Source: Oscillospiraceae bacterium (GTDB taxonomy: Bacteria; Bacillota; Clostridia; Oscillospirales; CAG-272). Taken from it: a DNA stretch of 64,000 nucleotides. The stretch lies in assembly GCA_015064415.1 (NCBI GenBank), contig SVSG01000005.1, positions 29,273-93,272 of the forward strand. Direction: 5' to 3'. The notes under the pieces were generated by a model that was not told where the DNA came from, searched no databases, and saw nothing but the letters and a program-made list of their open reading frames with translations. The position numbers were made by a program, and so were the translations under genes. Of the stretch, positions 1 to 29,489 are shown piece by piece; the stretch's first letter is position 1; each line of letters opens with the position of its first letter.

Positions 1-2
1 CT

Positions 3-3000
3 CCTACTGCAGCCAACACTGCAAACGGTGTAAGCATTACGCTCACTGATATTGCCATCGACAACCATACTTACGTAATTTCCAACAGCACTCTTGCGTG
101 CGACGTTACCGCTACTGTGGCAAATGTCAATGCTACCACCACGGACGGTTTCCTTAACGTCCACAAGGATTCCACCCATACTCTGAACGCAACTGTTACG
201 AACTCCACCTACACTGTGGGCGGCAAGACGTACAATGCGTCCGGCAAGTATGCCATCACCGGCGCTACCCTGACGCTGAGCGGCTATGCCGATCAGGCAA
301 CTGCCGATACCGTTGCCCTGAAGGCAGGCTACGTGGTACGTACCACTGCCGACGGCGCAACCAACTCTGTGTACTACAGAGCATTTAATGCAGCTGCGAT
401 CAACCACGCAACGGCAGACGCCACCAAGGCAGGCACGATCACTGTGCTGACCAATCTTACCGGTATTACCTTTACGCTGGGTGACGGCGCGGATGATGCC
501 AACTTCAAGCCCTACGACCTTACCATCGTCGGCGTGAAGCTTCTGGGTGCAACCGCTTGGCCCACGCTCTCTCCCTCCGGCGCTGATGCCATCAAGATGT
601 ATGACGGCTCTGACCTTACGTTCCGTAACATTACGGTTCAGGCAAGCTTCCGTTGGGTCCGTGTTTACAACACCAAGGGTGTAGCCGATGACTGTAATCT
701 GATCTTCGGTGAAAATTCCACCGCTTTGATGAACACCGCTTCCTCTACCACGGAAGACTTCATCTACGCTCAGAACGCCTCTTATACCAACTTCATTGTT
801 GAGCAGGGCGCAGCCATCCGTATGACGCAGACTGCCGCAACCGGCAGAAAAACCGTAATTGCCTTCAACGGCGCTTACGGTGACGTTATCATCCGCGGTA
901 CTGTGGATGCAAACATCACCACGGTAGACGGCGCTACCAATATCTTCTTCTGCCAGATGGGCAGCACCTCCGGCAACCTCATTATAGAATCCACCGCAGT
1001 GGTCAACTTCAAGGTTACCGGTGGTTATGGTAACTCCTACTTTGTGGGTAGTACCGGTCTCGCAATTATCGATGCTGCTGCCAAGATCAACGGTGCTGTT
1101 CTGAATGACACCACCGCCAAGGCAATCGGTTTCAACATCCGTAACAATGCAGCTGACGGCAAGACCGACTTCTATGCAAACATTATAGGCGCACTCGCAT
1201 ACAAGCATATGAGTGACGTTTCCACCTTCACTTTGTTGGGCAATGCAAACATTTACGTTTACGAAACCATCAAGGATAAGGAATTCACCATTACTTCTCT
1301 TGAGGGTAACAAGTTCACCCTTACCCTTCCCAGCACCTATGCCGCATTCAATCTCGGTGCTAACACCAAGTTGACGCTTACCAACCTCACGCTGAACCTC
1401 GGCGGCAACCGCTTTGCACGCGTAGACGGCAACACGCACGTTATCTTCGGTGACGGTGCTACCGTAAACTGCTCTGCAGGCATCTTCATCTACTCGAACT
1501 CCAATGGTGCTTTTGACATCACCGCAACCTATGACTTCCAGGCCGGCTCTGTGATCAACTGGACCTCTGCTTCCGGTAGCATGATCTATCACGACGGCAC
1601 CAAGGACCTCAACAATGACGGCGACGTCAAGGATTCCGGCGAAAAGCAAAAGCTGACCCTTAACGTCTACATCTCCGGCGAGATGAACATCTCCTCCACC
1701 TCTACCGGTGCGATCACGTACGACAAGAACGACAACAGCTCTTATATCGTTTGGATCGACTTCACCACCGCAAAGATCACCTGCACCGCCACGTACTGGT
1801 TCTACCATTGCGAGCAAAGAAGCCCTGTTTACATGACGGGTCTTGACACGATCGAGGAGTATGACGCCGTTGCGCGCAAGACCAGTCTTGCTGTGCGTTC
1901 CGGCGCAAAAATCGGCGAGGGCGTATGGGTTCCCTACACCGGCTTCCGCGGTCAGATCAACCAGGTCGCCATCGACGTTCTGCCCGAGGGCGAGAACACC
2001 CTTTACCTGCTTGAGGACATTACTTCCATCAACTCCACAATGCACTACAAGGATCGCGACAGCTTCCGCATCGTCAGCAACAAGGCAGACGGTACGCAGG
2101 CAACCATCAAGTTCCAAGGTGACGCTTACCGCTTCAGAGTATACTCCGGTTCTCCTTTGACTCTTGATAATGTTAACATCATCACCGGAAAGGGCTCCTC
2201 GGATGTGGGCAAGCTGTTCCAGTTCCATAACGGAACCTCTGCAGTTCCCGCCACGCTGATCCTGACGAACGGTTCGACCCTGACAAGCAAAGTTCCTGCA
2301 TCCGCACTCAATTTTGCTGACACCACTGCACTTGTCAAGATCGAGTCCACGGATACCTTGACCAATCTTGATACGTTCGCAGCCTCCTTCGCATTGAAGC
2401 TTCGCGTTGTTACTGAAACCGGAGCTAACTACTACAACACGCTGTCTCTGCATGCAGCAAATACTGCCACCGCGAACGCTACTAAGGCGGGCACTGTTAC
2501 CGCTCTGGCAAACTTCTCCGTGGCAAAGGAATATTTCGTGCTTGGCGACGGCAAGGATGATGCCAACTTCACCACCTACGATCTGACGGTCACCGGTATC
2601 AAGGTTGGCTCCGCTACCGAGTATCCCACCATCACTGTTTCTCAGGATGGTATCCGTCTGTATGACGGCTCTGACATCACGTTCACCAACGTCAACATCT
2701 ACTCCAACAACCGTTGGCTGAGAATTTACAACACCAAGTGCACGGATCCCTGTGATATCGTCTTCGGCGAGAACGTCACCGCTTCTCAGAAGACCGCCAC
2801 CTCCAACGATGACTTTATTCTGGTGACCTCCGGCTCTTACACCAACATCACCGTGGAAGAGGGTGCAACGCTGACCAGAACTCTGACGGCAGCTAACACC
2901 ACCGCTACGAAGAAGATGTTCTCCGCCGACAGCCTTCACGGTACCATTACCATTGCGGGTACTGTCACGTTCAACGCCGCTTGCACATTGAACAGCAATA

Positions 3001-6000
3001 ACAAGCCCACTCCCGCATATCTGTTCGCCACGAACGGCGCTGACAGCGCTGTGGTCATCAAATCCACCGCAAACGTGAACTTCTCCGCAACCGGTGAATC
3101 TGCCGGCTCTTCCATCCTCACCGGCGACACATACGTGACTATTGAAGACGGCGCAACCGTCAACGGCACCACCTACGAGTCCGCTCGTCTTGCCGCACAG
3201 CAGTTTGGTCTTGCGGCCGAGTACACGGACAAGGCAGACGGCAAGGTCTACTACGTTAACAATGTGGCCTATGCACTGAAGAATGCCAAGGATAAGACTG
3301 CCGTTACTCTGCTTCGCGACGCTTCCTTCAGCGGCGTTATTTCGCTTGAAGGCAGAGAGTTGACGATCGCCAGCATCCCCGGCAGCACCTACACCCTGAC
3401 GCACACCTCCGGTTGGGCAGCATTCTGGCTGCTGAGCGACTCCAAGCTGACGCTTGAGAACATTACTCTTACCCTTCAGGTCAACGCCGACTGCAACGGT
3501 CGCTTTGCACGTATCGACGGCAGCTCGCACGTTATCTTCGGTAACGGCGCTACCGTAAATACCGCCGGTGCGATCTTCATTTACAACAACGGCAACGGTC
3601 TTGCAGGCGGCTACGCTTACACCATCGACTTCCTTGCCGGCTCCGTGATCAACGCCACCGGTAGCATGAGCAACGGTTTGATCTACCACAACAGTGAATC
3701 GGCTGCCAATGCCGACGTCACCGTCAACATTGCCGGTACGATCAACATTCCGACCGCTTCTCCCATCACCAAGGACGCAGACGCGAATGGCAGATACGTC
3801 GTGAACTACGATGCAAGCACCGCTGACGTTACCTGCGGCGCTCCCATCTGGTTCTCTCACAACACTCTTGTTTACTTCAAGAACCTTGAGGGTGACGCTG
3901 TAACCGAGTTTGCTCTTGCATGCGGTCTTGCCGTCCGTTACGGCGACGTCTACGCATCCGGCATCTATACGCCTATGCTTGACCTCATCCCCGAGGGTGG
4001 CTCCGCTATCATTTACATCCTTCAGGATGTGAACACATTCTGCACTGCAGCATTCTCCAACAAGACCGTTACTGTCAAGAGCGATCCTGCTGCAGGCATC
4101 AACTACTATACTATCACCAGTGTCAGCACTGCCCCGATCTTTGCGATCGGCGAAAATGCACACCTCATCCTGGACAACATCAACATCGTATCCGGTTCCT
4201 TCATCCGCTTTGAGACTGTCAATGCGGACAATGCCACCATTACAGTTGATTTCAACTCTGGTGCGACTGTGACCGCATCCAAGTCCAGCTCCTACCCCAA
4301 CTTCATTTATGCAACCGGCGCCCAGAACAAGCCCGTTCTGCTGACGATCAACGTCAACTCCGGCGCTAAGCTGGGCCGTCCCGCTAACACGTGGGCCGTG
4401 ACCGGAAGTGACCGTAACTGCTATCTGTTCAACTTGAACAACTTTGGCACCAATCTTCTTGCCGGTTCTGCCATCAACGTGGCAGGTACGCTGGAAGAGC
4501 TGACCTCCTTCGAGGGCACCGGTGCAAGACGTAGCTCGATCATCCTTGCCAACAAGGATGCCGACCTTACCGTGAACATCACCCCCGGTGCTGTGTTCAA
4601 CTACAACGCAGGCACGCACGGCATCAACGCTGACGAGGGTATGATCAACACGATTGGTGCTGTGAACATCTCCGGCGGTGCATTCAACCTCTCCGGTGAA
4701 ACGGATATGCTCGCTCCCTTCTGGCTTGCATCTACTTCCGTTTATACCTTCACCGGCAACATCGTCTTCAACGCACCTTATCTGACTGAGTTCTTCTACT
4801 CTTACAGCTCTGAGGCGAAGGTTTACTTCGACAATGCAACTTTCCGCACGAACGTTCCTGCAAACATCAAGCTTGAATACGCAAACCGCAATCTGCCCGC
4901 TATCACGGTTGTGAACTCTACGTTCACGAGCGAGCACGTTGCTAACATACTCAATGCAACTGTCACGCTTGACAACGGCAATGCACTTTCCGGTCGTTAT
5001 GACCTTGCAAGCGCTATCGCACTTGTGGAAAGCGGCGCAACCATCTACCTGCAGGCAGACTCCATCATTTCCTCCACCATCGTTCTGGACGGCAAGGCAA
5101 TCACCATTGCTCCCATCGGTGACGAGGCAATGAAGCTTGCGCTTTACTCCAACACCGTGGGCAAGATGTTCGTTCTGAAGAACGGCGCTTCCCTTACCCT
5201 CAACAACCTTACCGTTACCATCACCGCTGACACGGTCGACCGCAAGGTCGAGACCGCCGGCTCTTTCATCACCGTTGATGAAGCAGAGCCCACCGGTGCT
5301 GTGAAGGTTAACCTCAATAACATCAACTTGACCGCAAGCGCTTCTATTCCCTTCTACTTCGGCGGCAATTCCGTTGTTGAAGTTGCTATCAACGGCGGTT
5401 CTTACGTTGGCGAGGGTATGTTCGCAATCGGTTACTACGCATCCGAGTCCGAAAAGGGCAAAGGCGACGGCGTTGACGTTACCTCCAACGCAACCGTTAC
5501 CGTTACTGTTACCGGTACGGAAGACGAGCACGTTCTGCTGAGAAGAACCGAAGCAGGCGACCAGAACGCCATCATCTTCATCAACTTCGCAGGCAAGGCA
5601 GCCAATCACAAGAATCAGGTCGTCTTCAACCTTACCCACGCCGACCTTGGTCGCGAGGGTGCAGCTTCTTACACGCATCCCATCTATCTGAGAGGCGCTG
5701 CCGCACTGACGCTCAATCAGACCTGCGGTCAGTTCTACACCGGCGGTTGGCTGATCGGCGGACAGTCCGGTGCTGCTCTCTACGTAACTCTTACCGACGT
5801 TGATATGACCTACACCGGCACCAGCTACTCGCTGCGTCCTTACGGTGTATCCGGCGCCGGCTCCTACTTCAAGATGGTAGGCGGCTCCGTCAACGCTAAC
5901 AGAGTTTCTGATTCCGGCTACGTTCTTTCCTTCAACGCTGATATCGCCGTGTCCTTCACCGGCACGACCTTCAACGTTGCAACCAACGCAACTCTCTTCA

Positions 6001-9000
6001 GCCGTGAGGGTGGCATTGCTCCTTCCATCGTGCTGGACGGCTGTACCTTCAATATGGCAGGTAAGATCGTTACCACCAGCAAGACCATGAACGTTATGGT
6101 CAAGGGCGAAACCAAGGTCCTTGAGGGCGAAGAGCTTGTAGCTATCACCCCCGAGATTGCTTTGGCACGCGGCTTCATCGTTGAGCTTGAAGGCACAAGC
6201 GTTTACGCCTCCAACCTGTTCACCGCGTTTGTGGCAGAGGCCAAGGCAGAGACCAACAAGGTCCTGATCCACGGCAATCTGGCACTCAGCTATCCCATTT
6301 ATGTCACCAACCAGAACATCACCTTTGCAGGTGTTGGTGAAAACATCACCATCACTGTAGGTGTCGGTCTGCGTCCGTTCTACATTGAGAACAACTCTAC
6401 CGTCACCTTCAAGGATCTGACCATCAACGCCTACCGCTTCTTCACCTTCAATGCGAGCAACAGCGACGTTCTGACCACCGTTACCCTGGAGAATACGGAC
6501 GTTATCGTTCCCGACTACTCCAAGGACATCGATGCGCTGATCTACAAGGGTCATACCGTTGGTAAGGCCGTTCTGAACATTGATGCAAACTCCTCTATCG
6601 TGATGAACTCCTCTGCGGCTCCCGCAACTGATAAAACCATCTACGCTCTTATCGCCATCTACAACGGCGAAGGCGCAACCGTCAACGTCTGGGGTACCAT
6701 TAAGAACCTGATGAAGACGAGCGAGAGCCAGAACGCGCAGGTCATCTCGATCAAGGGCGCGAAGAACAACGCTACCGTAAACATTTACGACGGTGCTGTG
6801 CTGGAGGGCACTTCCTCTTACGGCAAGTACACCGGCACGCACGGCGGTAGCTACTGCGGTATCATCTACTTCTCTCAGGGTACCAACACGCTGAACATCG
6901 AGGGCGGTACCATCACCGTTCACGGTGTCACCGGTCTTGCTTACACCGGCACCACGGCCACAATCAACATTTCCGGCAATGCTGTGATCAACAACGTGGA
7001 TGCCCAGTACGCGATGTTCTTCGGCGATAACCAGACTGCTCACATCACCGGCACTGCTGATGCAAAGCCCGTTATCAACACGCCCGCTAAGCTGATTGCA
7101 AGCGGCACGGCTTACGCTTACAACTTCTTCACCGAGGAAGAGTACGCAACCCTTGCCAAGACGCTTGGCTTCACGGTGCTGCTTGCCAGCTCCAACACGG
7201 CATGCACCACTTGGAACGCCACCATGCGCGACCTGATGGCCGCTGAGGAAACGTTGTATCTGCTGAACAACGTCAGCTCCAGCTCCAACTTCAGCGCAGC
7301 TTCTCTCACCGATACGAAGCTGACTATTACCAGCTACGGTAATGCGAAGTACACCTGGACGACAACCATCAGAGCGAATGCTGTTCTCTTCTTCGTGGCT
7401 TCCAACACGCATCTGATCATCGACAACGTCATTATGGACGTTGCGGCTCGCTTCATGCGCTTTGAAAGCGACGGCGAGACCGGCACCTCTATGAAGGTCG
7501 ACATCCTGGGCGGTGCTGAGATCTACGCACTTCCCGGCGGCGACGGCAACTTCATCTACTACAGCGCAGACCGTGTTCTGACTATGAACATTGAGGAAGG
7601 CGCTATCATCCAGCGCAAGGGTGATTCCGATGCCGCTACCGGTCACTTGATCAACCTTGGTGCCAACTTCGCCGAGGGCTCCGTGATCAATATCAAGGGT
7701 AAGATCTCCGATATCACCAACTACACCGGTACCGCTACTCGTGGCGGCAACCTCTTCGCAGTTCCCGGTGCAAACGTTGTGGTCAACATCTACAACACCG
7801 CAGAGCTTGAAATGGCTCTGACCACCGAGACCGGCAAGATCGGTGTGGTTCGCTTCGCTCCCGCAGGCCTTGTTTACTTCAAGAACTTCGCCGAGGGCAC
7901 CGATTACGACAAGCTTGCAACCAGCTACGGTCTGGCACTGCGCGCAGATGCTACTGCAACCGCAGACACCGCTTACGCTCGCAACCTTTCCGCTCAGCTG
8001 ATTGCTCTTGCCGAGAGCAACGGTACGATCTACGCTCTCAACGACTTCGTTCTGTCCGCTAACTTCACGATCGATAACAAGAACGTTGTGATCGAGCCCC
8101 TGCGCGACGGCATCACGATGACCCAGAGCGCAACCATCACGCTGATCAACGATTCCTCCCTTACCGTGAAGAATCTTGCGATCGTCTCCAGCGCTTGCTT
8201 CATCAACTCCTCTACCGTTACCAACGGTAACACCATTAAGCTGGAGAACGTAAAGGTCACCACTTCTGCCAAGAAGGACACCGACTTTATCACCGTTACC
8301 AACTCCAAGACTGCGATCGAGATCACGAACTTTGAGTTCCTTGCCACCGCTAACCGCGTTCGTGTGATCCGCGCAACCACCAACGGTGTTGTAACCTCCT
8401 TGAAGGTTACCAACGCTAAGCTGAACACCGCCCTCTTCCGTGTGGAAAACACCACGGGCGTGATCGGCTCTGCCGAGGCACCCGCAACGCTTACTGACGT
8501 AACCTTTGTTGCTGACGAAGTCATCGGTTCTGCCTTCATGTACGCTTACAACGCTGCCGCTTACGTGGATATCTTCGGCGGCTCCTACACCGGTCAGTTC
8601 ATTTACGGCGGTGACAACAACACCAACACGTTGCAGATCCGCGTGAATCCCATCGGTGACAAGACCACCACGATCTCTACGCTGACTCCCTCTACGACAA
8701 GCCAGTACACGGCACTGATTCACCTGAATCCCGCTGCCGCTGCGGACGTGACCCTTTCCTTCCGCAATGCTACGCTGTCTGACGTGGGCGGCAAGAGCGC
8801 ACTGATCCGCGTGATGAAGACCACCAGACTTACCATCTACGTGGATAACACCACTCTGAACGCAAACTCCTTCCTGAATGCATACCACTATTGCACTGTT
8901 TACGGTCACTTCAACAGTGCCGCAGAAGCAAAGACCTTCGGCTTCAACGTACGCCTTGGCGAAAACGTTGGCAAGGGTGTTTACTACTACTTCGTCAACC

Positions 9001-10265
9001 ATGCATTCGAGGCAGCGAAGGACGGCGACACCATCTACCTGATGGGCAACGCATCCTCTATCAACGTTGGTATCGACGATACCCTGTTTACCAAGAAGGT
9101 ACACGTCACCAGTGACGGCGGTCCTTACACGGTCACCACTCTGACGGGTATTGCCTTCTATCTGGGTGACGGCGCTGAGTTGAAGTTCACTAACGTGATC
9201 TACGACCTCTCCAACCGTCTTGCCCGTATCGACGGCAGCTGCTCGATCATCTTCGGTGCCGGCTCCGTGATGAACCACAAGAACACCATCTTCATTTACA
9301 ACAACGGTCAGGAATCCGTCAAGGGTGCCAAGTACACCATCGACATCCAGGCAGGTTCTACCATCAACGCTACCACCGCTCTTGCAAACGGCTTGATCTA
9401 CCACAACGGCGCGAACACCGCGGATAATGAAATTACCGTGAAGATCGCCGGTAAGATCAATATGCCCACCAAGTCTTACATCGTAAGATCTGTTGACAAG
9501 AACGGCAGATACCACATCTACTACGATGCATCCACCGCCGACGTTACCGTTGGTCAGGATCTGTGGTTCTCCAATGTCTTCCTTGGCAACCGCGACGGCG
9601 CTATGGCTGACGACGTGCTGTGGGCAACCGGCTTCAAGTCTCATGCAGAGGCAGACGAGTTCGGTTACAAGCACGTGGGCGCTTACTTCCGTACCTACGA
9701 CGCGAACCCCGAGGCAGAGTACGAATACAGCTTCGTGCTCCACACGCAGTTCGTTGATGTTATCACCGGTCACCTGACCTCCTACGGCGGCGAGGTTATG
9801 ATCCTTCGCAGCACGCAGAGCGTTTACGCCACCAGACACTTCGACTTCGGCGGCGTACTGACCTTCAAGTCCTACAACGGCGCTTACTTCGGTGCTCAGG
9901 ACGGTGCTTACCGCTTCCGCATCAAAAACGGCACGACCGTTATCCTTGACGGCGTTGAGTTCAGAACCAAGGGCGGCGCATTCATGCTCCACCAGGGCAC
10001 TGCAGCCAACCCCTCCGAGCTCAAGCTGATCAACGGCGCTAAGATCACCTCCACCGGTGAAATCGCAGGTGCCACGATGATCTCCTTCAACGACAAGGAT
10101 TGCGCCAACACCAACCTTTACGTTGACGAGACCTCCTCGATTACGCTGTCCGGCGCTAACACCGGATCCCTGAATATGATCTACGTGAACGCCGGCTGGT
10201 CCGGTACCATGACGATCAAGGGTACCCTTACCACCACGGCAGCTCCACCGGCTACGTTGTTCTGA
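3..10265 (+). CDS. Giant repetitive beta-helix-like extracellular protein, first frame (5'-partial; continues via frameshift into ~10236-17194)
   Basis: Frame is open from base 3 (cct act gca gcc aac...), so the GTG at 117 is not the true start. T/N/G/A/V/I-rich beta-strand periodicity, recurring internal modules, very strong codon bias (ACC, AAC, GGC/GGT, TCC). Confidence 0.85.
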   Translation, partial: PTAANTANGVSITLTDIAIDNHTYVISNSTLACDVTATVANVNATTTDGFLNVHKDSTHTLNATVTNSTYTVGGKTYNASGKYAITGATLTLSGYADQATADTVALKAGYVVRTTADGATNSVYYRAFNAAAINHATADATKAGTITVLTNLTGITFTLGDGADDANFKPYDLTIVGVKLLGATAWPTLSPSGADAIKMYDGSDLTFRNITVQASFRWVRVYNTKGVADDCNLIFGENSTALMNTASSTTEDFIYAQNASYTNFIVEQGAAIRMTQTAATGRKTVIAFNGAYGDVIIRGTVDANITTVDGATNIFFCQMGSTSGNLIIESTAVVNFKVTGGYGNSYFVGSTGLAIIDAAAKINGAVLNDTTAKAIGFNIRNNAADGKTDFYANIIGALAYKHMSDVSTFTLLGNANIYVYETIKDKEFTITSLEGNKFTLTLPSTYAAFNLGANTKLTLTNLTLNLGGNRFARVDGNTHVIFGDGATVNCSAGIFIYSNSNGAFDITATYDFQAGSVINWTSASGSMIYHDGTKDLNNDGDVKDSGEKQKLTLNVYISGEMNISSTSTGAITYDKNDNSSYIVWIDFTTAKITCTATYWFYHCEQRSPVYMTGLDTIEEYDAVARKTSLAVRSGAKIGEGVWVPYTGFRGQINQVAIDVLPEGENTLYLLEDITSINSTMHYKDRDSFRIVSNKADGTQATIKFQGDAYRFRVYSGSPLTLDNVNIITGKGSSDVGKLFQFHNGTSAVPATLILTNGSTLTSKVPASALNFADTTALVKIESTDTLTNLDTFAASFALKLRVVTETGANYYNTLSLHAANTATANATKAGTVTALANFSVAKEYFVLGDGKDDANFTTYDLTVTGIKVGSATEYPTITVSQDGIRLYDGSDITFTNVNIYSNNRWLRIYNTKCTDPCDIVFGENVTASQKTATSNDDFILVTSGSYTNITVEEGATLTRTLTAANTTATKKMFSADSLHGTITIAGTVTFNAACTLNSNNKPTPAYLFATNGADSAVVIKSTANVNFSATGESAGSSILTGDTYVTIEDGATVNGTTYESARLAAQQFGLAAEYTDKADGKVYYVNNVAYALKNAKDKTAVTLLRDASFSGVISLEGRELTIASIPGSTYTLTHTSGWAAFWLLSDSKLTLENITLTLQVNADCNGRFARIDGSSHVIFGNGATVNTAGAIFIYNNGNGLAGGYAYTIDFLAGSVINATGSMSNGLIYHNSESAANADVTVNIAGTINIPTASPITKDADANGRYVVNYDASTADVTCGAPIWFSHNTLVYFKNLEGDAVTEFALACGLAVRYGDVYASGIYTPMLDLIPEGGSAIIYILQDVNTFCTAAFSNKTVTVKSDPAAGINYYTITSVSTAPIFAIGENAHLILDNINIVSGSFIRFETVNADNATITVDFNSGATVTASKSSSYPNFIYATGAQNKPVLLTINVNSGAKLGRPANTWAVTGSDRNCYLFNLNNFGTNLLAGSAINVAGTLEELTSFEGTGARRSSIILANKDADLTVNITPGAVFNYNAGTHGINADEGMINTIGAVNISGGAFNLSGETDMLAPFWLASTSVYTFTGNIVFNAPYLTEFFYSYSSEAKVYFDNATFRTNVPANIKLEYANRNLPAITVVNSTFTSEHVANILNATVTLDNGNALSGRYDLASAIALVESGATIYLQADSIISSTIVLDGKAITIAPIGDEAMKLALYSNTVGKMFVLKNGASLTLNNLTVTITADTVDRKVETAGSFITVDEAEPTGAVKVNLNNINLTASASIPFYFGGNSVVEVAINGGSYVGEGMFAIGYYASESEKGKGDGVDVTSNATVTVTVTGTEDEHVLLRRTEAGDQNAIIFINFAGKAANHKNQVVFNLTHADLGREGAASYTHPIYLRGAAALTLNQTCGQFYTGGWLIGGQSGAALYVTLTDVDMTYTGTSYSLRPYGVSGAGSYFKMVGGSVNANRVSDSGYVLSFNADIAVSFTGTTFNVATNATLFSREGGIAPSIVLDGCTFNMAGKIVTTSKTMNVMVKGETKVLEGEELVAITPEIALARGFIVELEGTSVYASNLFTAFVAEAKAETNKVLIHGNLALSYPIYVTNQNITFAGVGENITITVGVGLRPFYIENNSTVTFKDLTINAYRFFTFNASNSDVLTTVTLENTDVIVPDYSKDIDALIYKGHTVGKAVLNIDANSSIVMNSSAAPATDKTIYALIAIYNGEGATVNVWGTIKNLMKTSESQNAQVISIKGAKNNATVNIYDGAVLEGTSSYGKYTGTHGGSYCGIIYFSQGTNTLNIEGGTITVHGVTGLAYTGTTATINISGNAVINNVDAQYAMFFGDNQTAHITGTADAKPVINTPAKLIASGTAYAYNFFTEEEYATLAKTLGFTVLLASSNTACTTWNATMRDLMAAEETLYLLNNVSSSSNFSAASLTDTKLTITSYGNAKYTWTTTIRANAVLFFVASNTHLIIDNVIMDVAARFMRFESDGETGTSMKVDILGGAEIYALPGGDGNFIYYSADRVLTMNIEEGAIIQRKGDSDAATGHLINLGANFAEGSVINIKGKISDITNYTGTATRGGNLFAVPGANVVVNIYNTAELEMALTTETGKIGVVRFAPAGLVYFKNFAEGTDYDKLATSYGLALRADATATADTAYARNLSAQLIALAESNGTIYALNDFVLSANFTIDNKNVVIEPLRDGITMTQSATITLINDSSLTVKNLAIVSSACFINSSTVTNGNTIKLENVKVTTSAKKDTDFITVTNSKTAIEITNFEFLATANRVRVIRATTNGVVTSLKVTNAKLNTALFRVENTTGVIGSAEAPATLTDVTFVADEVIGSAFMYAYNAAAYVDIFGGSYTGQFIYGGDNNTNTLQIRVNPIGDKTTTISTLTPSTTSQYTALIHLNPAAAADVTLSFRNATLSDVGGKSALIRVMKTTRLTIYVDNTTLNANSFLNAYHYCTVYGHFNSAAEAKTFGFNVRLGENVGKGVYYYFVNHAFEAAKDGDTIYLMGNASSINVGIDDTLFTKKVHVTSDGGPYTVTTLTGIAFYLGDGAELKFTNVIYDLSNRLARIDGSCSIIFGAGSVMNHKNTIFIYNNGQESVKGAKYTIDIQAGSTINATTALANGLIYHNGANTADNEITVKIAGKINMPTKSYIVRSVDKNGRYHIYYDASTADVTVGQDLWFSNVFLGNRDGAMADDVLWATGFKSHAEADEFGYKHVGAYFRTYDANPEAEYEYSFVLHTQFVDVITGHLTSYGGEVMILRSTQSVYATRHFDFGGVLTFKSYNGAYFGAQDGAYRFRIKNGTTVILDGVEFRTKGGAFMLHQGTAANPSELKLINGAKITSTGEIAGATMISFNDKDCANTNLYVDETSSITLSGANTGSLNMIYVNAGWSGTMTIKGTLTTTAAPPATLF

Positions 10266-13200
10266 TCAACATCGGCGGTGCTGATTCCACCGGTAACATC
10301 ATCCTTGATGGTGCTACCATCAACCTGAACAGCACCAAGGGCACCGAGGCCATCATGATCGATGCCGATGCCTCCAACAATACGGGTACGATCACGATCA
10401 AGAACGCGACGCTGAACAACAACGCCGTATGCACGGGCACCACCGCATTCGTGCGCACCGGCGAGCTGGTCAACATCGAGATCTACACGAAGGGTCTTAC
10501 CGCAAACTACAATCCCACCAACTCCTACAAGTACTCTGCTCCCTTCTTCGGAACGGGTCTTGTGTACTTCAAGGACGTTACCGGTGCTGAGGCCGATGCA
10601 ATGGCCGTTGAGCTTGGTACGGGCGTTCGCTACGGCGACGTTTACTCCGCCGCACTTTCCACCCGCATGGTCAACCTGATCCCCGTGGGCGGCTCCGGCG
10701 AGATCCACTTCCTGTGCCCTGCTTACGTTCCTACGCACATCACCATCTTCAACCGTCACGTCACTCTTGTTGGCGTTGAGAACAACACCGCTTACAATTA
10801 CTTCTACACGCCCACCGCTAACTACATGTTCTACATCCAGAACGTCGGCTCGCTGATCTTCAAGAACATGAACATTACCGGTGCAAGACCTCTGATCAAC
10901 TATCAGGCAATCGATGCCGCAACCGTTGCACAGGCAGACAGAGACATTCTGATCAGCTTCATCGCATCCAACGTGAAGATCACCGGTTCCTCCGTGCTGA
11001 TCAACTCCAACGCACACCACGGCAGCGTTGCGAACAAGAAGTGTGATACCATCACGCTCCTTATCGACAAGGATACTACCATTGACTACACGGCCAACTC
11101 CTCCGGTACGAGCACTGATATCTACTGCTTCAGCTTCAACCACAACACGCATCCCACCGTGTACGTCAATATCGAAGGTACCGTGAACTTCGCTTGTGTC
11201 GGTGCTACCGTCAGGGACGTCTTCTTCATCCGCGACAACAACCCGTCCACTACGACCGTCAACATCGCACAGACCGCGAACATCTCGCTTCGCGTCACCT
11301 CTACGGTCGGCGGCCACAAGTTCTTCGCTTCCGCAACCGGTGGTTCCGAAACCTCCAACAAGATGAACATCCATCTGGATGCCATCACCGATGAGAACGG
11401 TCTGACGATCGACAACTTCACGCTGTTCAGCCTGTACAGAGCTACCAATATGTACGATCTGTGCATCACCGCTACCACAGACAAGTGGACTGCTGAGCTG
11501 CAGAAGCTCATCGCCGTGTCGGCAGGTGCTGAGGTTCCCGCGATCGGTGCTTACGCTGAGATCGACGGCACTTACTACTACTCTTCCATCATTGGTCACT
11601 CGCTGATCTCCAAGATTACCGACGAGGCAACCGTTTACATCCTGAACGATTGCACCACCAGCAGAGAGATCGTGCTTGAGGGCATGAAGATCACCTTCAA
11701 GAGCTTCGGCGACAAGATCTACACGGTAACCAGCAACTACATCAGTGTTTCCCCGATCTTCAAGGTGCTTGGCGACGTGCATCTGGTCTTCGAGAACGTC
11801 ACCTTTGTGGCAGGTCGCTTCGCACGTATCGACGACGTGACCAAGGTTGACTCCTACTTCACGGTTGACGTGAACAAGGGCGCAAGCCTGATCGCATCCG
11901 ATCCCGCGAAGGACCCCAACTTCATCTACGGTTCCACTACCGTTGACAGACTGGTAACCATCAACATCAATGAGGGCGGTTACATGGGTCGTCCCGCATA
12001 CGACTGGGCTTCCGGCACTGCCTTCATCCTCAACTTCGACTCGCTTAAGCTGTCTCCCGGTTCTTCCGTGAACGTAGCGGGCACGATGGAGGATCTGATC
12101 AACTTCACCGCAACCTCCGGTACGAGAAAGAGTGCTATCATCCTGAACCGTACCGACTCCGACCTGACGGTCAACATTCTGCCCGGTGCTGTATTCAACT
12201 ACAACGGCGGCAGACACTCCGTCAACCAGGGTCAGGGTCTGATCAACGTTGCAGGTAAGATCAACATCTCCGGCGGTACGTTCAACATCTCCGGCACCGC
12301 AGAGGTTCTGCCGATCTTCTGGCTGAACACCGGCGCTTCCATGTACCTCACCGGTGAGATCACCATCAATGCACCTGCCCTCAAGCAGCTCTGCTACACG
12401 TACACCGCACCCACCACGATCACCGTGGACGGTGCCACCATCCTTGGTGCTGCCGCTGATAATGCGGTCACCACCAGCACGACCAACTATCCCACGCTCA
12501 AGGTCATCGACGCCACCTTCGGCAACGAGAACCTTGCATCCATGTTCGGCGGTACCGCTTGCGTAGGCGAGCTTGATGCTGAGAATCCTCTGGCTCACCG
12601 CTACGACTTCAGCTCCGCAGTCAAGATCGCACTTTCCAAGGGTATCGAGCTTGTTACCATCACCGGTAACACCATCATGAACGAGGGTATCGTTCTGAAC
12701 GGTCAGACGCTGAAGCTGATCTGCTCTGCACAGACTGCTCCCACCGTCTATGCAAGCCCCAACGTTCTGAAGGCATTCACCCTCCAGAACGGCGCAACCC
12801 TTGAGATCCGCAACATCAACTTCAACCTGAGAGCCAACACCGTTGACCGCCAGGTCGAGACCGCAGGTGTGTTCATCACCGCTGATGAGACCGCACCCAA
12901 CGGCGCTAACAATGTCCTGCTTGACAACGTCACTCTCACCGCCGGTTACGGTATTCCCTTCTACTTCGGCGGAAACACTATCGTGAACCTCACCATCAAC
13001 GGCGGTTCTTACACGGGCGGGGGTATGTTCGCTATCGGCTACACCGCTACCGAGTCCGCAACGGGCAAGGGCGACGGCGTTGACGTATTCTCCAATGCAA
13101 CCGTTCGTGTGACCATCACCGGTACTCACGACAAGCACGTTGTAATCAAGAGAACCGTTGGCGGCGACCAGAACTCCATCATCTTCGTGAATCAGACAGG

Positions 13201-16200
13201 TTCCGCTCTTGAGAACAAGGGCAAGGTTGCCTTCACCATGACTCACGTGGATCTGGATTCCTCTGCTACCAGCTATCCCATGTATCTGCGCACCAGAGCG
13301 GCTCTCACCGTGGATTACACCTGCGGTAAGATGTCCTCCACCGCTTGGTTGTTTGCAAGCCAGGCAAACTGCGCATTCTACGCAAACTTCACCGACGTTG
13401 ATATGACCAGTACCAGAACCAGCTACATCGCACGTCCTTACGGCGCAGCCGGCTCCGGTTCTTACGTCAACATCACCGGCGGTACCATTACCGGTGACAA
13501 GGTTAAGGCAACGGAATACATGCTGTCCTTCAACAATGATATCGACGTTACCCTTACCGGCGTTAAGATCGTCAGTGCCCTGGGCGCTCCCATCTTCGGT
13601 TCCGAAACCCAGACGGGTCTGTCCATCACCATTTCCGATCTTGACATCTCCGAGGCAGGCGCTCTGGTCCATGCAACCAAGACTCCTGTTCTCCACAACA
13701 ACGGTATCGTCATGGAGAATGACGCAGCTGCTATTGCTAAGGGCCTTGTCTTCCGCGTTGGTCCCGAGGGCGGCAAGTACTTCCACTCCATCGCCTCCGC
13801 TGTTGCAGCAGTGGCTGATGGCGGCGTGATCTACGTCCTTGCCAACTCCACCGAGCCCTCCAGCAACATCGCACTGAACAAGTACATCACCTTCGAGCTG
13901 GTCAACGCTCCCGCAACCGGTTACACCATCACGCACACCGGCACCGGCAATCTGTTCCTTGTGACCGATAGCACGGAAGCCGCTCCCGCACGTCTTGTCA
14001 TCAGCAACATGAAGTTCGTCAGCACCGTTGCCACCGGCGCGATCTTCGCTACCGCAGGCAATGGCTACGCCATCATCGAGCTGACCAACTGTGAGGTAAG
14101 CACCTCCAAGGGCGGTGTGTTCAACTTCAGTGGCAAGTCCTCTGCAGTTGTTACCATCAACGGTGGTTACTTCAAGGCATACTACCGTCCCGTTTACACT
14201 GTTGAAGAGTCCGCAGTTCAGTTCACCGCATCCGACGTGACCTTCGAGGGTCTGGGTGCAGGTAACGACGGTACCATCTTCTTCTTCGACAACACCAACG
14301 GTAACACCGGTGCCGTTGCGTTCCGCTTCACCGACTGTAAGATCGTCAACACGACCTCCAGCGGTCACGGTATCTACGCAATGAACACCTCCAAGGTTGA
14401 CCTTGACATGACCAACTGTACCATCAACGTACGCGGCTGGTGCTTGTCTTCTCAGTCGAACACCACCTGGCACGCAAATCTCACGAACGTCAGCTTCACC
14501 ACGAACAGTAACAACCACGCCGTAAGACTTTACGGTACCGCAGGTTCTTACCTGAACGTGATGGGTGGTACCTTCCATCAGACCGGCACTACCTCCACTA
14601 ACGAAGGCGTGCTCTCTGTTGGTAACTCCATCGTGCTGAACTTCTTCGACGGTTACATCGAATCCGACGAGATCGCATGTATCACCGCTCTCACCGCAAC
14701 CGTACAGATCAACATTTACGGCGGTACCTTCCGTTACACCGGTAACAAGGATGGCGGTGCTCCCGTAGCACTTCCCAGCCGCGGTATGATCACCGTGAAT
14801 GGCGGTAACTTCATTACCGAAAGCTCTGTCGGCCCCGTATTCAGCAACGTCGCGAACACCGCGAACTCGCTGATCCTCAACGCATTCAATGCATACGGCA
14901 ACGCTAACCTGATCACCAACCTTGGCGCAGGCACGCCCACTGCCGATCACGATGCATACGGTCGCACCTCTCTCAACACGATCGTGATGACTACGGGTGC
15001 AACTCCCATCCTTACCGAGGGTGCTGCGGGTCTTGGCTTCAAGGCATCTCTCAGCGCTAACGCTTACGCTTACCTCACCGGTCTTGCAGTTGACCGCGTT
15101 GTCAAGTTCGGTATGCTGGTCATCCCGACCGAAGAGCTTGATGAAACCAGATTCAACCACTACGGTTTCCAGACCGCAGGTCTTGTTGAAGGTGTCGATT
15201 ACTTCGACATCAAGGCAGGCGAGTCCGATGTCACTCTGGCAGACGACGGTTGCGTCGTGGTGAAGCTGGCTCTCACCGGCATCTCCGAGGCAGACTACAG
15301 CACCGCTTACTCCGTGGTATTCTACGCATCCTACGATGTGAACTTCGAGCTCAACGGCGAGCTTATAAGCACTCATAACGTGTACCAGTACGCTGATTAT
15401 GAGAGAAGCGAGAACTCCAGAAGCCTTGCACAGGTTGCACGTGCCGCTTATAACGACACCTCCGCAACGCAGGACTCCTACTACGTCAACCCCGTAGAAA
15501 ACACCGCACTCTACAGCCACTACACCACCGAGGAGCTGGCTCAGCTGGCTATCTTCTGTGGCGGCGATACCACTCAGCAGACCCTGGATATCTTCCTTGT
15601 TGCAGGCGGCTCCAACGCTGTCGGTAACACCGTATACGGCGACGCATTTGCTTCCGCGTTCGATCAGAACAGCATCTCCTCCAACGTATTCTACTCCGGC
15701 ATGATCTGTGATTACGCCGCTCAGACTTACGGCGCGACGACGCTGAACTTCGTAACCAGCAAGTACACCGCTATCGGCTCCACTCCTGCTCTTGGCATGG
15801 GCTGGCTCGCCGACTCTATGGGTCCCGAGGTCGGTATGGCTAAGGAACTTTCCAAGTATTACAACTCCGAATCCGGCAAGTATGCCGCAATCATGAAGTA
15901 TGCATTCAACAACGTCAGCCTTGTTGACGATGCTGAGTTCTGCAACAACTTCATGCAGATGGTAGCCGATCAGATCGCTGATTACCAGTCTCAGGGCTAC
16001 AAGGTGAACGTCGTTGGCCTGTACTGGCTGCAGGGCGAGGCCGACGTTGAGAATGTAAGCGCTTACGCCGCAGCATTCAACACGATGGTATCCAACGTAC
16101 GCAGCAACCTGTCCTCCATCACCGGCGCGGATCTTTCCTCCATGCCCGTGGTTGCAGGCGAGATCGCTAACTTCCTTGGCTTCAATACCGCAGACGCTCA

Positions 16201-17194
16201 GACCGCATTTGTGACCATGCAGAACACCCTCACCTCCGTGAACGGCGTGAAGGTAGACGCAACCTCCAAGTACGTGGCTGATGCAAACGGCATCTTCGTA
16301 AATCCTGCCGACGTTCTTGCTACCGGCGAGCGCGTTGCAGCTACGTTGATCACCAGTGGTACGAACACGCTTGATCCCGACGTTTCCGCCGAGATCACCG
16401 TTCCCACCATTGAGAACACCAACGAGATCTACGATGCAGAAGGTAATCCCTTCACCGACGCAGAAGGCAATGTCATCGGCTTCACGTCTCTCGTGATGGC
16501 CGCTGCTAAGGCCCCTGCCGGCTCTACCATCAAGCTGACTGCAGATCAGACGGTATACACTTCCATCCAGTTCGTCAACTCCGACAATCTTACCATCGAC
16601 GGTAACGGTAAGGTTATCACCGTGAACGGTAACGAAGCAGGTATCATTCTGCAGAACGCGAACGTAACGTTGAACAACTTCAAGCTTGACCACAAGGGCA
16701 ATGCAGTCGCCATCATGGTCGACGAAACCTCCAGTGTCGTCATCGACGGCAACTCCTCTATCATCGCCGAGAGCACCGCAATCGAGCTGACCGGTAGAGA
16801 CTCCATGCTGACGGTGAAGAACGGCGAGTTCCAGACCAGATCCGCTAACAACTATGCAGACGCTATCATCCGCACCGTTTCCGCTCACGTCACCATCGAA
16901 GGTGGTACGTTTGTGGCAGCCGCAGGTGGCTCTTGTGTCTACATCGGTAAGCTCGCATCCGACAAGCTGACCGTTAACATCAAGGGTGGTACCTTCACCA
17001 CCATCGATGTGGTCGCTCCCGTGATGACTGCTGACGGTCTGCAGGAAGTTGACGCCAATGGCGTAGCTCTCACCGCTACTGTTCAGGCAATCGCCTTCGT
17101 AAACGAGTACGTCCTGGCAATCCTTGTCATTTCTCCCGACGCCGTGGTTAACTCCAGCATCGTTTCCAACAATGCCGGTATCGGCCAGAACTGA
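10236..17194 (+). CDS. Giant protein, C-terminal part (beta-helix modules, unnamed domain, SASA/SGNH-like domain, final beta-rich module)
   Basis: The frame of ORF 10355-17194 is open back to 10160 and reads GSSTGYVVLINIGGADSTGNIILDGATINLN with the same codon bias from about 10238. It contains copies of modules seen in the first frame and has no signal peptide at 10355. Confidence 0.85.
15584..16360 (+). other. Sialate O-acetylesterase (SASA/CE6, SGNH)-like domain within the giant protein, probably inactive
   Basis: Motifs DIFLVAGGSNAVG (cf. GQSN), GPEVGMAKEL, GLYWLQGEAD (cf. WxQGEsD) and PVVAGEI are present; the DxxH position reads NGIF. Confidence 0.8.
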
Positions 17195-17248
17195 TTTGGT
17201 CACCAAGAAATCGTTTTGAAACGATTGTCAGCTAAATAAAATTTAGCG

Positions 17249-17280
17249 AACACCCCCGCCAATCGGCGGGGGTGTTTTTT
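17249..17280 (+). terminator. Rho-independent terminator after the giant gene
   Basis: AACACCCCCGCC-aatc-GGCGGGGGTGTT followed by a T run. Confidence 0.9.
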
Positions 17281-21682: not shown

Positions 21683-22984
21683 TCAGTTCATTTCTTGCGG
21701 TATACGCGTGCATTTCCAAATTTCTACACAATAGTCATCCGTCAAAAACTCTGCTGCCTTTTCGGGGTTCGAAAGCCCCTCAGCGGGAATGTCGCGCTCC
21801 TCTTTACCGTAAACCGCCACCCAATCCGCTGTATTGATAAAGACCGCCGAGGCAAGAGAGGTGCAATTTGCAAAGGCGTATTCGCCGATCCAATTCACGC
21901 ATGCAGGGATCGTGATCTCACGTAATGCAACGCACTCGTAAAAAGCAGAGTCGGCAATGCTCGTTACACTGCCATCAGCAGGGATCACACTTGTTTTACA
22001 CCCGGCAATCAAGGTGCGGCTTTGTGTTTCGATCAAGCAATTTCCCTCTGCGTGATATTTTGCGTTTCCGTCGGCCACCGTAATACGCTCCAACATAGCG
22101 CAGTTTGCGAAAAGACCGGGAAGTACCTCAGTCACGCTTGCCGGAATAAGGACGGAGGTCAGCGCCGTTTCAAAAAACGCCCACTCACCGATACGGCAAA
22201 GCCCCTCGGGAAATGCAATTGTTGCAAAGGACGCGCATTGGTAAAATGCATAATTGCCAATCATCTTGAGCTGACTGTCAGCTTCAAACACGACCTCCGA
22301 AAGCAACTCGCATTCGGAAAAAGCACTTTCGCAGATCAAATTGACGCTTGCGGGAATGGTGATCGTTTTGACCTTTTTACATTTTGCAAATGCGCCGCCC
22401 GCAATGATCTTTGTGTCCTTGTGGATCTCATACGCGTCCATCGATTTCGCAGTGCATTCATACAGCAAGAAATACGGATTGTCAACGCTTGCAATATAAG
22501 AACAGGCATCATACTCCGTTTTGGCAAGCTTTGTGCAACTATAAAATACATTTTCATCAATATGCCCGAGGAACCCCTTTTCAAACACCGCGTTTTCCAA
22601 TGCGGTACACATATAAAAGGCGCGGGTACGGATATCGGTCACGCTGCTTGGAATCACCACGGTGGTAATGTCTGCATGCTTGAACGCCTCCACACCGATC
22701 TCCTTCACAGGCGATCCCTGATACGTATTTGCGATCACCACATGCTTTGCTTCCCCGTTATAGCCCTTCACCGTGGCATAGGTGCCGTCTTTTGATTTTT
22801 CATAGACCACACCCTCCGTCGGTTTTGTCAAGTCTTCGGTACCTTCCTCTTGCTGACCTTCCCCCGGTGTTTGTTCGGTGTCGGGAGCGGCGTCATTCGT
22901 ATTCGGTTTTTGCGTTTCCTCGCACGCAACAAATACCAAAAACAAGACGATCAATACGCCAAAAATACAACACAGCTTTTTCAT
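21683..22984 (-). CDS. BspA-type (LRR_5) leucine-rich-repeat lipoprotein
   Basis: Signal peptide ending FVAC; repeats of the form ITIPASVNLICESAFSEC, IPACVNWIGEYAFANCTSL. Confidence 0.9.
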   Translation of the reverse strand: MKKLCCIFGVLIVLFLVFVACEETQKPNTNDAAPDTEQTPGEGQQEEGTEDLTKPTEGVVYEKSKDGTYATVKGYNGEAKHVVIANTYQGSPVKEIGVEAFKHADITTVVIPSSVTDIRTRAFYMCTALENAVFEKGFLGHIDENVFYSCTKLAKTEYDACSYIASVDNPYFLLYECTAKSMDAYEIHKDTKIIAGGAFAKCKKVKTITIPASVNLICESAFSECELLSEVVFEADSQLKMIGNYAFYQCASFATIAFPEGLCRIGEWAFFETALTSVLIPASVTEVLPGLFANCAMLERITVADGNAKYHAEGNCLIETQSRTLIAGCKTSVIPADGSVTSIADSAFYECVALREITIPACVNWIGEYAFANCTSLASAVFINTADWVAVYGKEERDIPAEGLSNPEKAAEFLTDDYCVEIWKCTRIPQEMN

Positions 22985-28834: not shown

Positions 28835-29489
28835 TCCCTTTATCGGATTTTATCATTACGGCGTTATTCTGACTTATCTTTCCCTTGCCTCTGCCATCGT
28901 CGGCATCTGCTTTTCCGTGGGAGGAAACAGAGCGGCTTATCCCGAAATCGGCGTGATCTGTCTTTTGATCTCCGGCATTTGCGACGCATTTGACGGTGCC
29001 GTGGCTCGCACGCGCAAAAACAGAACGCGCGAGGACCGCATGTTCGGCGAGCGCATCGACTCGCTCGCGGACCTCATTGCCTTTGGCGTGGCCCCCGCCA
29101 TGATCGGCTTCGGCATGCAGATCAACCGCTGGTTCTACATTCCCGTTTACGTCATTTTCGTGCTTTGCGGCCTTATCCGTCTTGCCTACTTTGACGTGAC
29201 CGAGCAGATCCGTACCGAGGATCCCAACTGCGGCAAGCGCACCTACTACGAGGGCATGCCCATCACCAACGTGGCCTTTTTCCTGCCCATCTTCTTCCTT
29301 GTGGCCACCCTGTTCGATCCTTATTCCTTCGGCCGCACCGCCGTGATGCTTGGCGGCTATCTGCTGATGGCGGTTCTCTTTATTCTCCGCTTTAAAACGC
29401 CCAAGCCCGGCATCAAGGGCATCCTTGCCCTGATCGGTATTCTGACCGTCATTCTGGCAGCGCTTGTCGCGCTTCACGTCGTGTTATGA
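28821..29489 (+). CDS. pssA: CDP-alcohol phosphatidyltransferase, likely phosphatidylserine synthase
   Basis: DAFDGAVAR...FGERIDSLADLIAFG, RLAYF, YEGMPI; coupled to psd. Confidence 0.85.
   Translation: MKKRNPFIGFYHYGVILTYLSLASAIVGICFSVGGNRAAYPEIGVICLLISGICDAFDGAVARTRKNRTREDRMFGERIDSLADLIAFGVAPAMIGFGMQINRWFYIPVYVIFVLCGLIRLAYFDVTEQIRTEDPNCGKRTYYEGMPITNVAFFLPIFFLVATLFDPYSFGRTAVMLGGYLLMAVLFILRFKTPKPGIKGILALIGILTVILAALVALHVVL

Follow-up and report, generated by a model that had tools for sequence, protein, structure and literature searches.

A giant exported protein of gut Clostridia, predicted to consist of serial, capped beta-helix domains and a SASA-like domain near its end

Background

What kind of protein is encoded by a reading frame that is already open near the first base of a sequenced stretch of DNA and runs on for more than 17 kb? 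The stretch in question, referred to here as the window, comprises 64,000 nucleotides (C32:29273-93272, contig SVSG01000005.1) of a metagenome-assembled genome (MAG) of an Oscillospiraceae bacterium, which consists of 2.25 Mb in 43 contigs with a completeness of 81% and a contamination of 0.2%. An original prediction, made from the letters of the window alone, had proposed an abundantly expressed, beta-helix-like surface or secreted fibre of at least about 5,700 residues, encoded by strongly restricted codons and devoid of a recognisable C-terminal anchor. We report that a single gene encodes an exported protein of about 7,409 residues, once a 1-nucleotide deletion near window position 10244 is read through, and that about two dozen right-handed parallel beta-helix domains, each with its own cap, follow one another in this one chain. 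A role as a glycan-binding or adhesive surface fibre is considered below together with its alternatives. Coordinates of the features are collected in Table 1.

Gene model

The frame that is open from window base 3 (frame A, frame 0) has 3,420 codons within the window before a premature stop. Upstream in the contig it continues open for another 5 kb to an ATG at contig position 24238 (window position -5034), giving 5,099 residues in total. A GAGAGG ribosome-binding site precedes this ATG and a promoter-like TTGACT-17-TAAAAT site lies 5' of it. A second frame (frame B), in which the same protein is continued, is open from about 10160, that is ~65 codons upstream of its internal ATG, and overlaps frame A by about 35 codons. 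Its reading 5' of the internal ATG, ...GSSTGYVVLINIGGADSTGNIILDG..., carries on the beta-helix protein sequence, and the C-terminus of the protein reads ...NSSIVSNNAGIGQN. The open frame with one frameshift over more than 17 kb was thus borne out, as was the strong terminator 3' of the gene, which consists of a hairpin and a T-run. The length proposed earlier was an underestimate, given that the start lies 5,034 bases upstream of the window.

As a check of the frameshift, public contigs were aligned to window positions 7000-13500. A contig from an RNA-sequencing library (run X11; 1,382 nucleotides, 96% identical) covers window positions 8988-10371 with 46 mismatches and 4 gaps, and has an extra C behind 10244 that joins frames A and B, reading ...TLTTTAAPTGYVVLINIGG.... 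The homologue P0003 is unbroken across the frame A/B junction, and P0008 (6,482 residues) and P0009 (5,193 residues) each extend in one frame from the same signal peptide through the same C-terminus; uninterrupted homologues are 3,251, 5,193 and 6,482 residues long. Judging from these alignments, the split into two frames is a 1-nucleotide deletion without counterpart in a close relative.

DNA contigs from run X1 that are 100% identical to the window stop at 10230 and resume at 10422, leaving the site unbridged. In the DNA runs X2 and X3, contigs spanning 10244 lack the extra C; their sequence departs from that of the window after 10256 and matches it again from 10688. Since they differ from the window after 10256, the state of the frame in this strain is not settled by them. 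Window positions 10256-10688 thus form a strain-variable segment adjoining the frameshift, where X2 and X3 carry other sequence. Because the break lies in such a segment, the MAG contig may be mis-joined at the frameshift site.

Predicted fold and domain architecture

Thr, Ala, Gly, Asn, Val and Ser are abundant in the protein, the net charge of which is acidic. SASA (PF03629) is the only Pfam match of the protein, with 35.4 bits against a cut-off of 24.8, covering frame B residues 1744-1996 and profile positions 2-222 of 226. Eight pieces, which together make up all of the protein outside the SASA-like stretch, showed no Pfam match at E <= 10, not to Beta_helix (PF13229), NosD or Pectate_lyase_3 either, and an NCBIfam search of the protein gave no match; about 96% of the 7,409 residues are unrecognised by the two databases. 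In a protein atlas, the module was found nearest to Beta_helix/NosD and DUF1565 clusters at a feature-level similarity of 0.93-0.94, which can be taken as a lead only.

The beta-helix nature of the protein, proposed earlier from its sequence, is confirmed at the level of predicted structure: two AlphaFold models, which together span four modules, both contain a right-handed parallel beta-helix of the pectin-lyase-like type, a three-sheet solenoid. Model 1 covers frame B residues 1114-2279 and was built from an alignment of 8 sequences, with a mean predicted local distance difference test score (pLDDT) of 79.8 and a predicted template modelling score (pTM) of 0.58; model 2 covers frame B residues 400-1150 and was built from 7 sequences, with a mean pLDDT of 73.6.

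On comparison with solved structures, the best match of model 1 residues 18-418 was the Sf6 tailspike (2vbk; Z score 27.4, root-mean-square deviation 3.1, 350 residues aligned), and further matches were CBA120 TSP3 (6nw9, Z 27.2) and the A-module of AlgE4 (2pyh, Z 25.7). The second domain of model 2 (residues about 345-735) detected Vag8 (7akv, Z 26.1), the RbmB lyase (9ozl, Z 24.2), pertactin (2iou, Z 24.0), the Sf6 tailspike (4urr, Z 23.9), PfbA (3zpp, Z 23.8) and SRRP (Z 23.0). Two-domain PL6 alginate lyases align over both domains of model 2 (residues 1-647), and the PL6 lyases 7dmk and 5gkq span model 1 residues 27-1166. Sequence identity to the structurally matched enzymes is 8-16%.

Along the chain, a cap motif of roughly A..A..G.TI.LL......I....K.ITI recurs about 22-25 times. 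The hidden Markov model used here was trained on the first module start of this same protein, which makes the module count descriptive only; of its 51 rows, 25 are matches at E <= 1e-9, and about 22 of these have the spacing of module starts. Window-by-window BLASTP revealed large, diverged internal duplications at 30-69% identity. In coordinates of the concatenated frames, the duplicated blocks pair 60-720 with 3750-4390, 1700-2120 with 2520-2900 and 3000-3740 with 5520-6235, and a further set comprises 1000-1350, 2150-2420, 2790-3030 and 4660-5030. From this pattern of sequence similarity, the gene appears to have grown through large segmental duplications that have since diverged.

The end of the protein is not featureless: it is a conserved unit of ~1,150 residues that is common to the homologues and comprises a beta-helix, a beta-sandwich-like domain, a SASA-like domain and a short beta-helix. 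Behind this last helix, a tail of about 20 residues is poorly conserved.

The SASA-like domain

Assignment of this domain to the SASA family depends on profiles and on the alpha/beta fold. A search with the single sequence of the SASA region against solved structures gave no match at E <= 1, and a 16-sequence profile of the domain detected 1zmb at 3.3e-10. With the modelled domain, Foldseek retrieved 1zmb (E 3.9e-5), 8f9p (4.3e-5), 7kmm (4.7e-5), 2apj (4.6e-4) and 3pt5 (1.1e-3). The domain is therefore a homologue of the family by profile and fold, and is not counted as an active esterase.

The window protein and its relatives L022, L023 and L024 were aligned with 12 canonical relatives. Block I is kept, with GGSN in the window and GQSN in the canonical relatives, so that the nucleophile Ser is retained; the QGE of block III is kept as well (YWLQGEAD in the window, WMQGE in canonical members). 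In the D-x-x-H of block V, Gly replaces the catalytic His in 4/4 members of this clade (D-A/T-N/D-G; D-A-N-G in the window), whereas the His is present in 12/12 canonical SASA relatives, and the alignment profile puts the His column on DGIH of 1zmb and DNLH of 2apj. Because histidine is wholly absent from the 281-residue SASA-like domain of the window, the domain cannot hold a classical Ser-His-Asp triad. We infer that it is most likely a pseudo-esterase, a binding module for acetylated sugars and not a Ser-His-Asp esterase.

In P0003 and P0005, the SASA domain is split behind block I by an insertion rich in cysteine, which contains repeats of CxCGYTC-like motifs. This insertion is absent from the window protein.

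Export and anchoring

The N-terminus, which lies upstream of the window, reads MNVLKRRALILTLLVLCLFGLTILGASA/AVD and has the basic and hydrophobic parts and the A-x-A motif of a Sec-type signal peptide, in agreement with the secreted or surface location proposed earlier. It is the only strongly hydrophobic segment of the protein. In five homologues, residues 1-28 are identical at 27/28, 24/28, 17/28, 17/28 and 13/28 positions, and the mature N-terminus (residues 29-160) is only 24-45% identical. This conservation is the sole hint of an N-terminal tether or of a dedicated export step, and the long, unusually conserved hydrophobic signal peptide may persist as an N-terminal membrane tether. In lipoproteins, the hydrophobic region ends in a lipobox, L-[ASTVI]-[GAS]-C; this pattern is not present in the signal peptide, where LVLC is followed by 12 further hydrophobic residues and A-S-A.

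The earlier view that a recognisable C-terminal anchor is missing stands in so far as the C-terminal tail has no sorting signal (LPxTG, hydrophobic stretch and basic tail) and no Pfam anchor domain was found anywhere in the protein; it had overlooked the SASA domain near the C-terminus. The sole LPxTG-like string, LPYTG at residue 1244, is internal and lies within a repeated module. A weakly hydrophobic C-terminal stretch, ATVQAIAFVNEYVLAILVI, was considered as a membrane anchor and rejected, as it lies within the strands of the terminal beta-helix and has no basic tail. Profile searches of the genome, which is 81% complete, gave no sortase match, and neither the S-layer homology (SLH) domain nor CW_binding_2 was matched in the genome or, by Pfam, in the protein; the S-layer association suggested earlier thus found no backing. 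Other giant proteins of this genome are likewise without known anchors, so that the lack of an anchor characterises the organism and not this gene alone.

A pair of ABC (ATP-binding cassette) exporter genes lies upstream and was examined as a dedicated exporter. The pair stays beside the slot also where the giant gene is missing (same-genus genome G192), and its position was accordingly attributed to backbone synteny and does not speak for a dedicated exporter.

Codon usage

For a codon adaptation index (CAI) referenced to ribosomal proteins, a search of the genome, 81% complete, for Ribosomal_L5_C gave no match, and a self-consistent CAI (scCAI) was used instead, with the top genes checked by Pfam. 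It was derived from 1,474 open reading frames (ORFs) of >= 150 codons among 1,699 ORFs called. The top 20 genes include GroEL, PGK, GAPDH, PFOR and IleRS; EF-G (0.656), RpoC (0.650), RpoB (0.647), ValRS (0.642) and acetate kinase (0.639) also score high. As its upper end is made up of such genes, the CAI axis behaves like translational selection.

Against a genome median of 0.377 (standard deviation 0.114) and 0.70-0.75 for the best genes, frame A has a scCAI of 0.53 (rank 156/1,474) and frame B of 0.62 (rank 46/1,474); for the parts within the window, the values are 0.58 (3-10262) and 0.62 (10355-17191). The index of the gene is thus above the genome median, and its distal part is comparable in codon adaptation to EF-G and RpoB/C. 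TCA is used for 0/531 Ser, and TTA once and CTA twice for 504 Leu, so that these three codons occur 3 times in 7,378 codons (0.41 per 1,000, compared with 6.9 genome-wide and 1.1 in the top-CAI set); AAG and TTC account for 91% and 86% in the gene. Most neighbouring genes score 0.27-0.49, with comparable exceptions at 31506-32630 (0.615) and 28812-29489 (0.556). The restricted codon use noted earlier therefore holds with respect to the near-absent codons and to most neighbours, although two neighbours are comparable and the bias is not extreme. Abundant expression is suggested by the codon bias only: adaptation is above that of most of the genome, but the values stay below those of the best genes.

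Towards the 3' end of the gene, adaptation increases, overall from 0.36 to about 0.63. Values of 0.35-0.39 for the first 600 codons give way to 0.60-0.68 past codon 4,000 or so; across 24 windows, each of 300 codons, Spearman rho is 0.83, and paralogous blocks differ by position (0.386 early vs 0.624 late). Such a rise may reflect selection against ribosomes dropping off late in a very long gene, a hypothesis whose underlying concept appears in PMC13271495. Two other giants of this genome, composed of BspA-type leucine-rich repeats (LRR) and Listeria-Bacteroides repeats (3,096 and 3,054 residues; C31:103261-112551 and C24:23376-32540), have a high CAI of 0.58-0.59 and no gradient. Four further ORFs of 1,894-2,749 residues without Pfam match (C16:77930-86182, C41:43831-50373, C28:7959-13811 and C13:17753-23437) have a CAI of 0.32-0.36. 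As this genome holds giants with high and with low CAI, length alone does not set the CAI level.

Two long antisense frames, aligned codon for codon with the gene, were rejected as genes. Their codon boundaries are those of the sense frame, and they are open because the sense codons TTA, CTA and TCA are nearly unused. The homologous loci show the same open antisense frames (L022 2-13642, L024 2-7513 and L023 4469-8848, all on the minus strand), and gene callers could mis-annotate them.

Outside the window, a 668-residue ORF without Pfam match at C9:16224-18233 (minus strand) has the second-highest CAI in the genome (0.751) and is a candidate for a structural or surface protein made in abundance.

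Relatives and genomic context

Out of 1.84 billion cluster representatives, a search with the module retrieved no more than 5 proteins, which are 3,983-6,482 residues long, and a search for relatives of near-equal length with frame B gave 5 among 5.8 billion, all with SASA. Full-length relatives of the C-terminal unit are L022, L023 and L024 (35-41% identity), which occur in GTDB representatives that are MAGs of uncultured gut Eubacteriales/Clostridia, and about eight further loci hold partial relatives of this unit at 26-29% identity. The beta-helix modules are also joined to other C-terminal ends, as in P0010 (LRR-like), P0011 and P0012. At E <= 1e-10, sampling of the GTDB family gave no match to the module at 11552-13804 in 100 further genomes (0/100) and none to the helix and sandwich region 13694-15574 in 200 (0/200), which is not proof of absence. 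Within this genome, there are no paralogues elsewhere at E <= 1e-5; its other giant ORFs are BspA-LRR/Listeria-Bacteroides-repeat proteins or have no Pfam match. The family is rare and confined to uncultured gut Clostridia, and no description of it was found in a full-text literature search.

The order of genes at the window locus is ABC-ABC-giant-tsaE-tsaB-rpiB-ispD. At the L023 locus, it is ABC-ABC-1,435-residue homologue-pheS, and L022 (at least 4,538 residues) and L024 (at least 2,488 residues) are followed by pheS-pheT...tsaB. In the same-genus genome G192 the slot is empty (ABC-ABC-pheS-pheT-tsaE-tsaB-rpiB-ispD). Homologues at the same chromosomal slot thus range five-fold in length, from 1,435 to 7,409 residues. 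In another genome of the genus (G130), contig C8 ends at 9886, 176 bases after the orthologous ABC exporter gene. A giant-like gene may have remained unassembled at this contig end, where the giant gene sits in the window.

Table 1. Positions of the features of the giant gene, in window coordinates
Feature	Position	Strand	Remarks
In-window part of frame A	1..10265	+	precursor residues about 1679-5099; premature TGA 10263-10265
Twelve beta-helix module starts (cap motif)	402..9950: 402, 1197, 1986, 2460, 3267, 4002, 5007, 6222, 7233, 7992, 8997, 9804	+	
Frameshift site	10242..10247	+	GCTCCA in the window; GCTCCCA in the 96%-identical contig
Frame B, same protein continued	10247..17194	+	2,279 codons from internal ATG 10355; stop 17192-17194
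Beta-rich module, model 2 first domain	11552..12451	+	predicted structure; beta-helix at moderate confidence
Right-handed parallel beta-helix, model 2 second domain	12584..13756	+	predicted structure; pLDDT about 88
Right-handed parallel beta-helix, model 1 residues 18-418	13745..14947	+	pLDDT about 90
Beta-sandwich-like connecting domain with short helices, model 1 residues 423-610	14960..15523	+	modelled secondary structure
SASA-like (SGNH-type) domain, model 1 residues 612-900	15584..16342	+	
C-terminal short beta-helix, model 1 residues 910-1160	16421..17173	+	cap motif at 16496; conserved in homologues
Intrinsic terminator-like hairpin and T-run	17248-17277	+	13-bp stem, 9 G-C pairs
Codon-aligned antisense open frames	3-9992 (3,330 codons) and 10181-17206 (2,341 codons)	-	by-products

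Possible function and alternative explanations

By analogy with beta-helix adhesins and tailspikes, we consider it somewhat better than an even chance (a probability of about 0.55) that the protein is a long polyvalent glycan-binding or adhesive surface fibre. The signal peptide would export the chain of ~7,409 residues, and the exported beta-helices would form a long extracellular fibre. If every module were stacked on the next, with a rise of 4.8 Å per beta-helix coil, its length would have a rough ceiling of about 130 nm. Polysaccharides may be bound in the grooves of the helices, as in tailspikes, PfbA and the binding region of SRRP, and the SASA-like pseudo-esterase would contribute binding of acetylated sugars. 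For retention at the cell, the best lead is the long conserved signal peptide, which would stay in the membrane as an N-terminal tether. The high and rising codon adaptation would fit a truly translated gene in which late ribosome drop-off is costly.

Comparison with known systems helps to delimit this functional space. The phage tailspikes (Sf6 2vbk and CBA120 TSP3 6nw9) share a right-handed beta-helix of ~350 residues, the grooves of which bind glycans; however, they have one helix per trimer subunit compared with about two dozen in one chain here, identity is 10-12%, and the gene lies in a chromosomal housekeeping context (ABC exporters, tsaE, tsaB, rpiB, ispD) and encodes a signal peptide at its N-terminus. 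The closest functional analogy for a gut commensal is provided by PfbA of S. pneumoniae (3zpp, 4mr0) and the binding region of SRRP of L. reuteri (5ny0), which are likewise secreted surface beta-helix proteins of Firmicutes. Each of them has a single helix and is attached to the cell wall by way of LPXTG and sortase, whereas the window protein is 10-20 times longer and has no C-terminal LPXTG, in a genome without a sortase match. The SASA/SGNH acetylesterases (1zmb, 2apj, NanS 3pt5, SIAE 8f9o and XAC1771 7kmm) are homologous to the SASA-like domain by Pfam, profile and fold and have GxSN and QGE in common with it, but keep the block V His where the window clade has Gly. Giant extracellular repeat proteins of gut Clostridia, from mammalian gut metagenomes, are reported to lack transmembrane anchors (West-Roberts et al. 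2023, bioRxiv 10.1101/2023.11.21.568195). They consist of RCC1 propellers, Listeria-Bacteroides repeats, YG repeats, dockerins or LRRs; among the giants described in the available part of that preprint, there is no chain of capped beta-helices with a SASA-like end.

Several points weigh against the proposed surface fibre. The models were built from only 7-8 sequences, the packing of the modules (as a rod or as beads) is not predicted, and the inter-domain linker of model 2 is below pLDDT 50. The ordinary A-S-A cleavage motif in the signal peptide favours release from the membrane. Contigs from RNA libraries are no proof of transcription, as DNA can occur in such libraries, and the codon gradient has other possible causes and is absent from the other two giants with a high CAI. 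In this strain the deletion could be real; the X1 contigs do not bridge the site. Beta-helix folds are, moreover, equally typical of polysaccharide lyases, hydrolases and epimerases, and catalysis by some of the modules is possible.

This last point leads to an enzymatic alternative, in which many modules are active depolymerases, lyases or epimerases acting on dietary, host or microbial glycans and the SASA-like domain deacetylates by a non-canonical route. The top structural matches are indeed mostly enzymes (the Sf6 and CBA120 tailspikes, AlgE4, inulin lyases, PL6, RbmB and capsule depolymerases), a domain of an esterase family is fused at the end, and the nucleophile Ser and the QGE block are retained. 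However, no module matches a catalytic family of Pfam or NCBIfam, in the case of Pfam even at the permissive threshold used, catalytic residues are untraceable at so low a sequence identity, histidine is missing from the SASA-like domain, and adhesins of the same fold (PfbA, SRRP, Vag8, pertactin and EtpA) score equally well; we regard a chain of many enzymes as unlikely. It is similarly doubtful that the gene is decaying, with a real frameshift that leaves a truncated secreted product of 5,099 residues without the C-terminal unit, or no product, at a locus heading for loss. The stop is present in the window sequence and no identical X1 contig reads across the site, and the empty slot in the same-genus genome, together with the absence of matches in 200 family genomes, indicates that gain and loss occur. 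Any inactivation would have to be very recent, however, as the 2,279 codons past the shift are open and have the highest adaptation of the gene (0.62); a relative with 96% identity has an intact frame, and the coincidence of the break with a strain-variable segment is a pattern typical of a chimeric join in metagenome assembly. Two separate genes, the second starting from the internal ATG of frame B, or a programmed -1 slip near 10244, could be invoked on the strength of that ATG and of the overlap between the frames. Frame B, however, has neither a signal peptide nor a hydrophobic start and continues beta-helix sequence upstream of its ATG, the homologues are single open frames, and no slippery heptamer of the form X XXY YYZ was seen by eye in 10230-10265, all of which renders both arrangements highly improbable.

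A more specific version of the glycan-binding fibre would be an expandable tailspike-like array, in which each of the ~two dozen modules is a receptor-binding unit for another glycan, the SASA-like domain is an esterase-derived lectin for acetylated sugars, and an uncleaved signal peptide is the tether; taken as a whole, this combination is a long shot. If it were true, gut Clostridia without sortase or SLH systems would capture glycans polyvalently, or recognise other cells, by means of a new architecture. Should the modules be glycan receptors, the protein would offer small-genome, sortase-less gut Firmicutes a route of attachment to food particles, mucus and microbes, and the SASA domain without His would be a case of an esterase turned lectin. 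The analysis places a glycan-handling fold in a protein that is almost wholly outside Pfam and NCBIfam. The gene also lends itself to testing whether codon selection in very long genes depends on position, and how giant repetitive genes come to be broken or mis-joined in metagenome assemblies.

Additional observations

In this MAG, pheS and pheT are absent from their usual slot beside tsaE. Three representatives of the same genus are 1.5-1.7 Mb in size at 97-98% completeness, compared with 2.25 Mb at 81% for this MAG. On the opposite strand, 4.5 kb downstream of the giant gene, window positions 21683-22984 (minus strand) encode a BspA-type LRR protein of 433 residues (LRR_5, E 7e-51).

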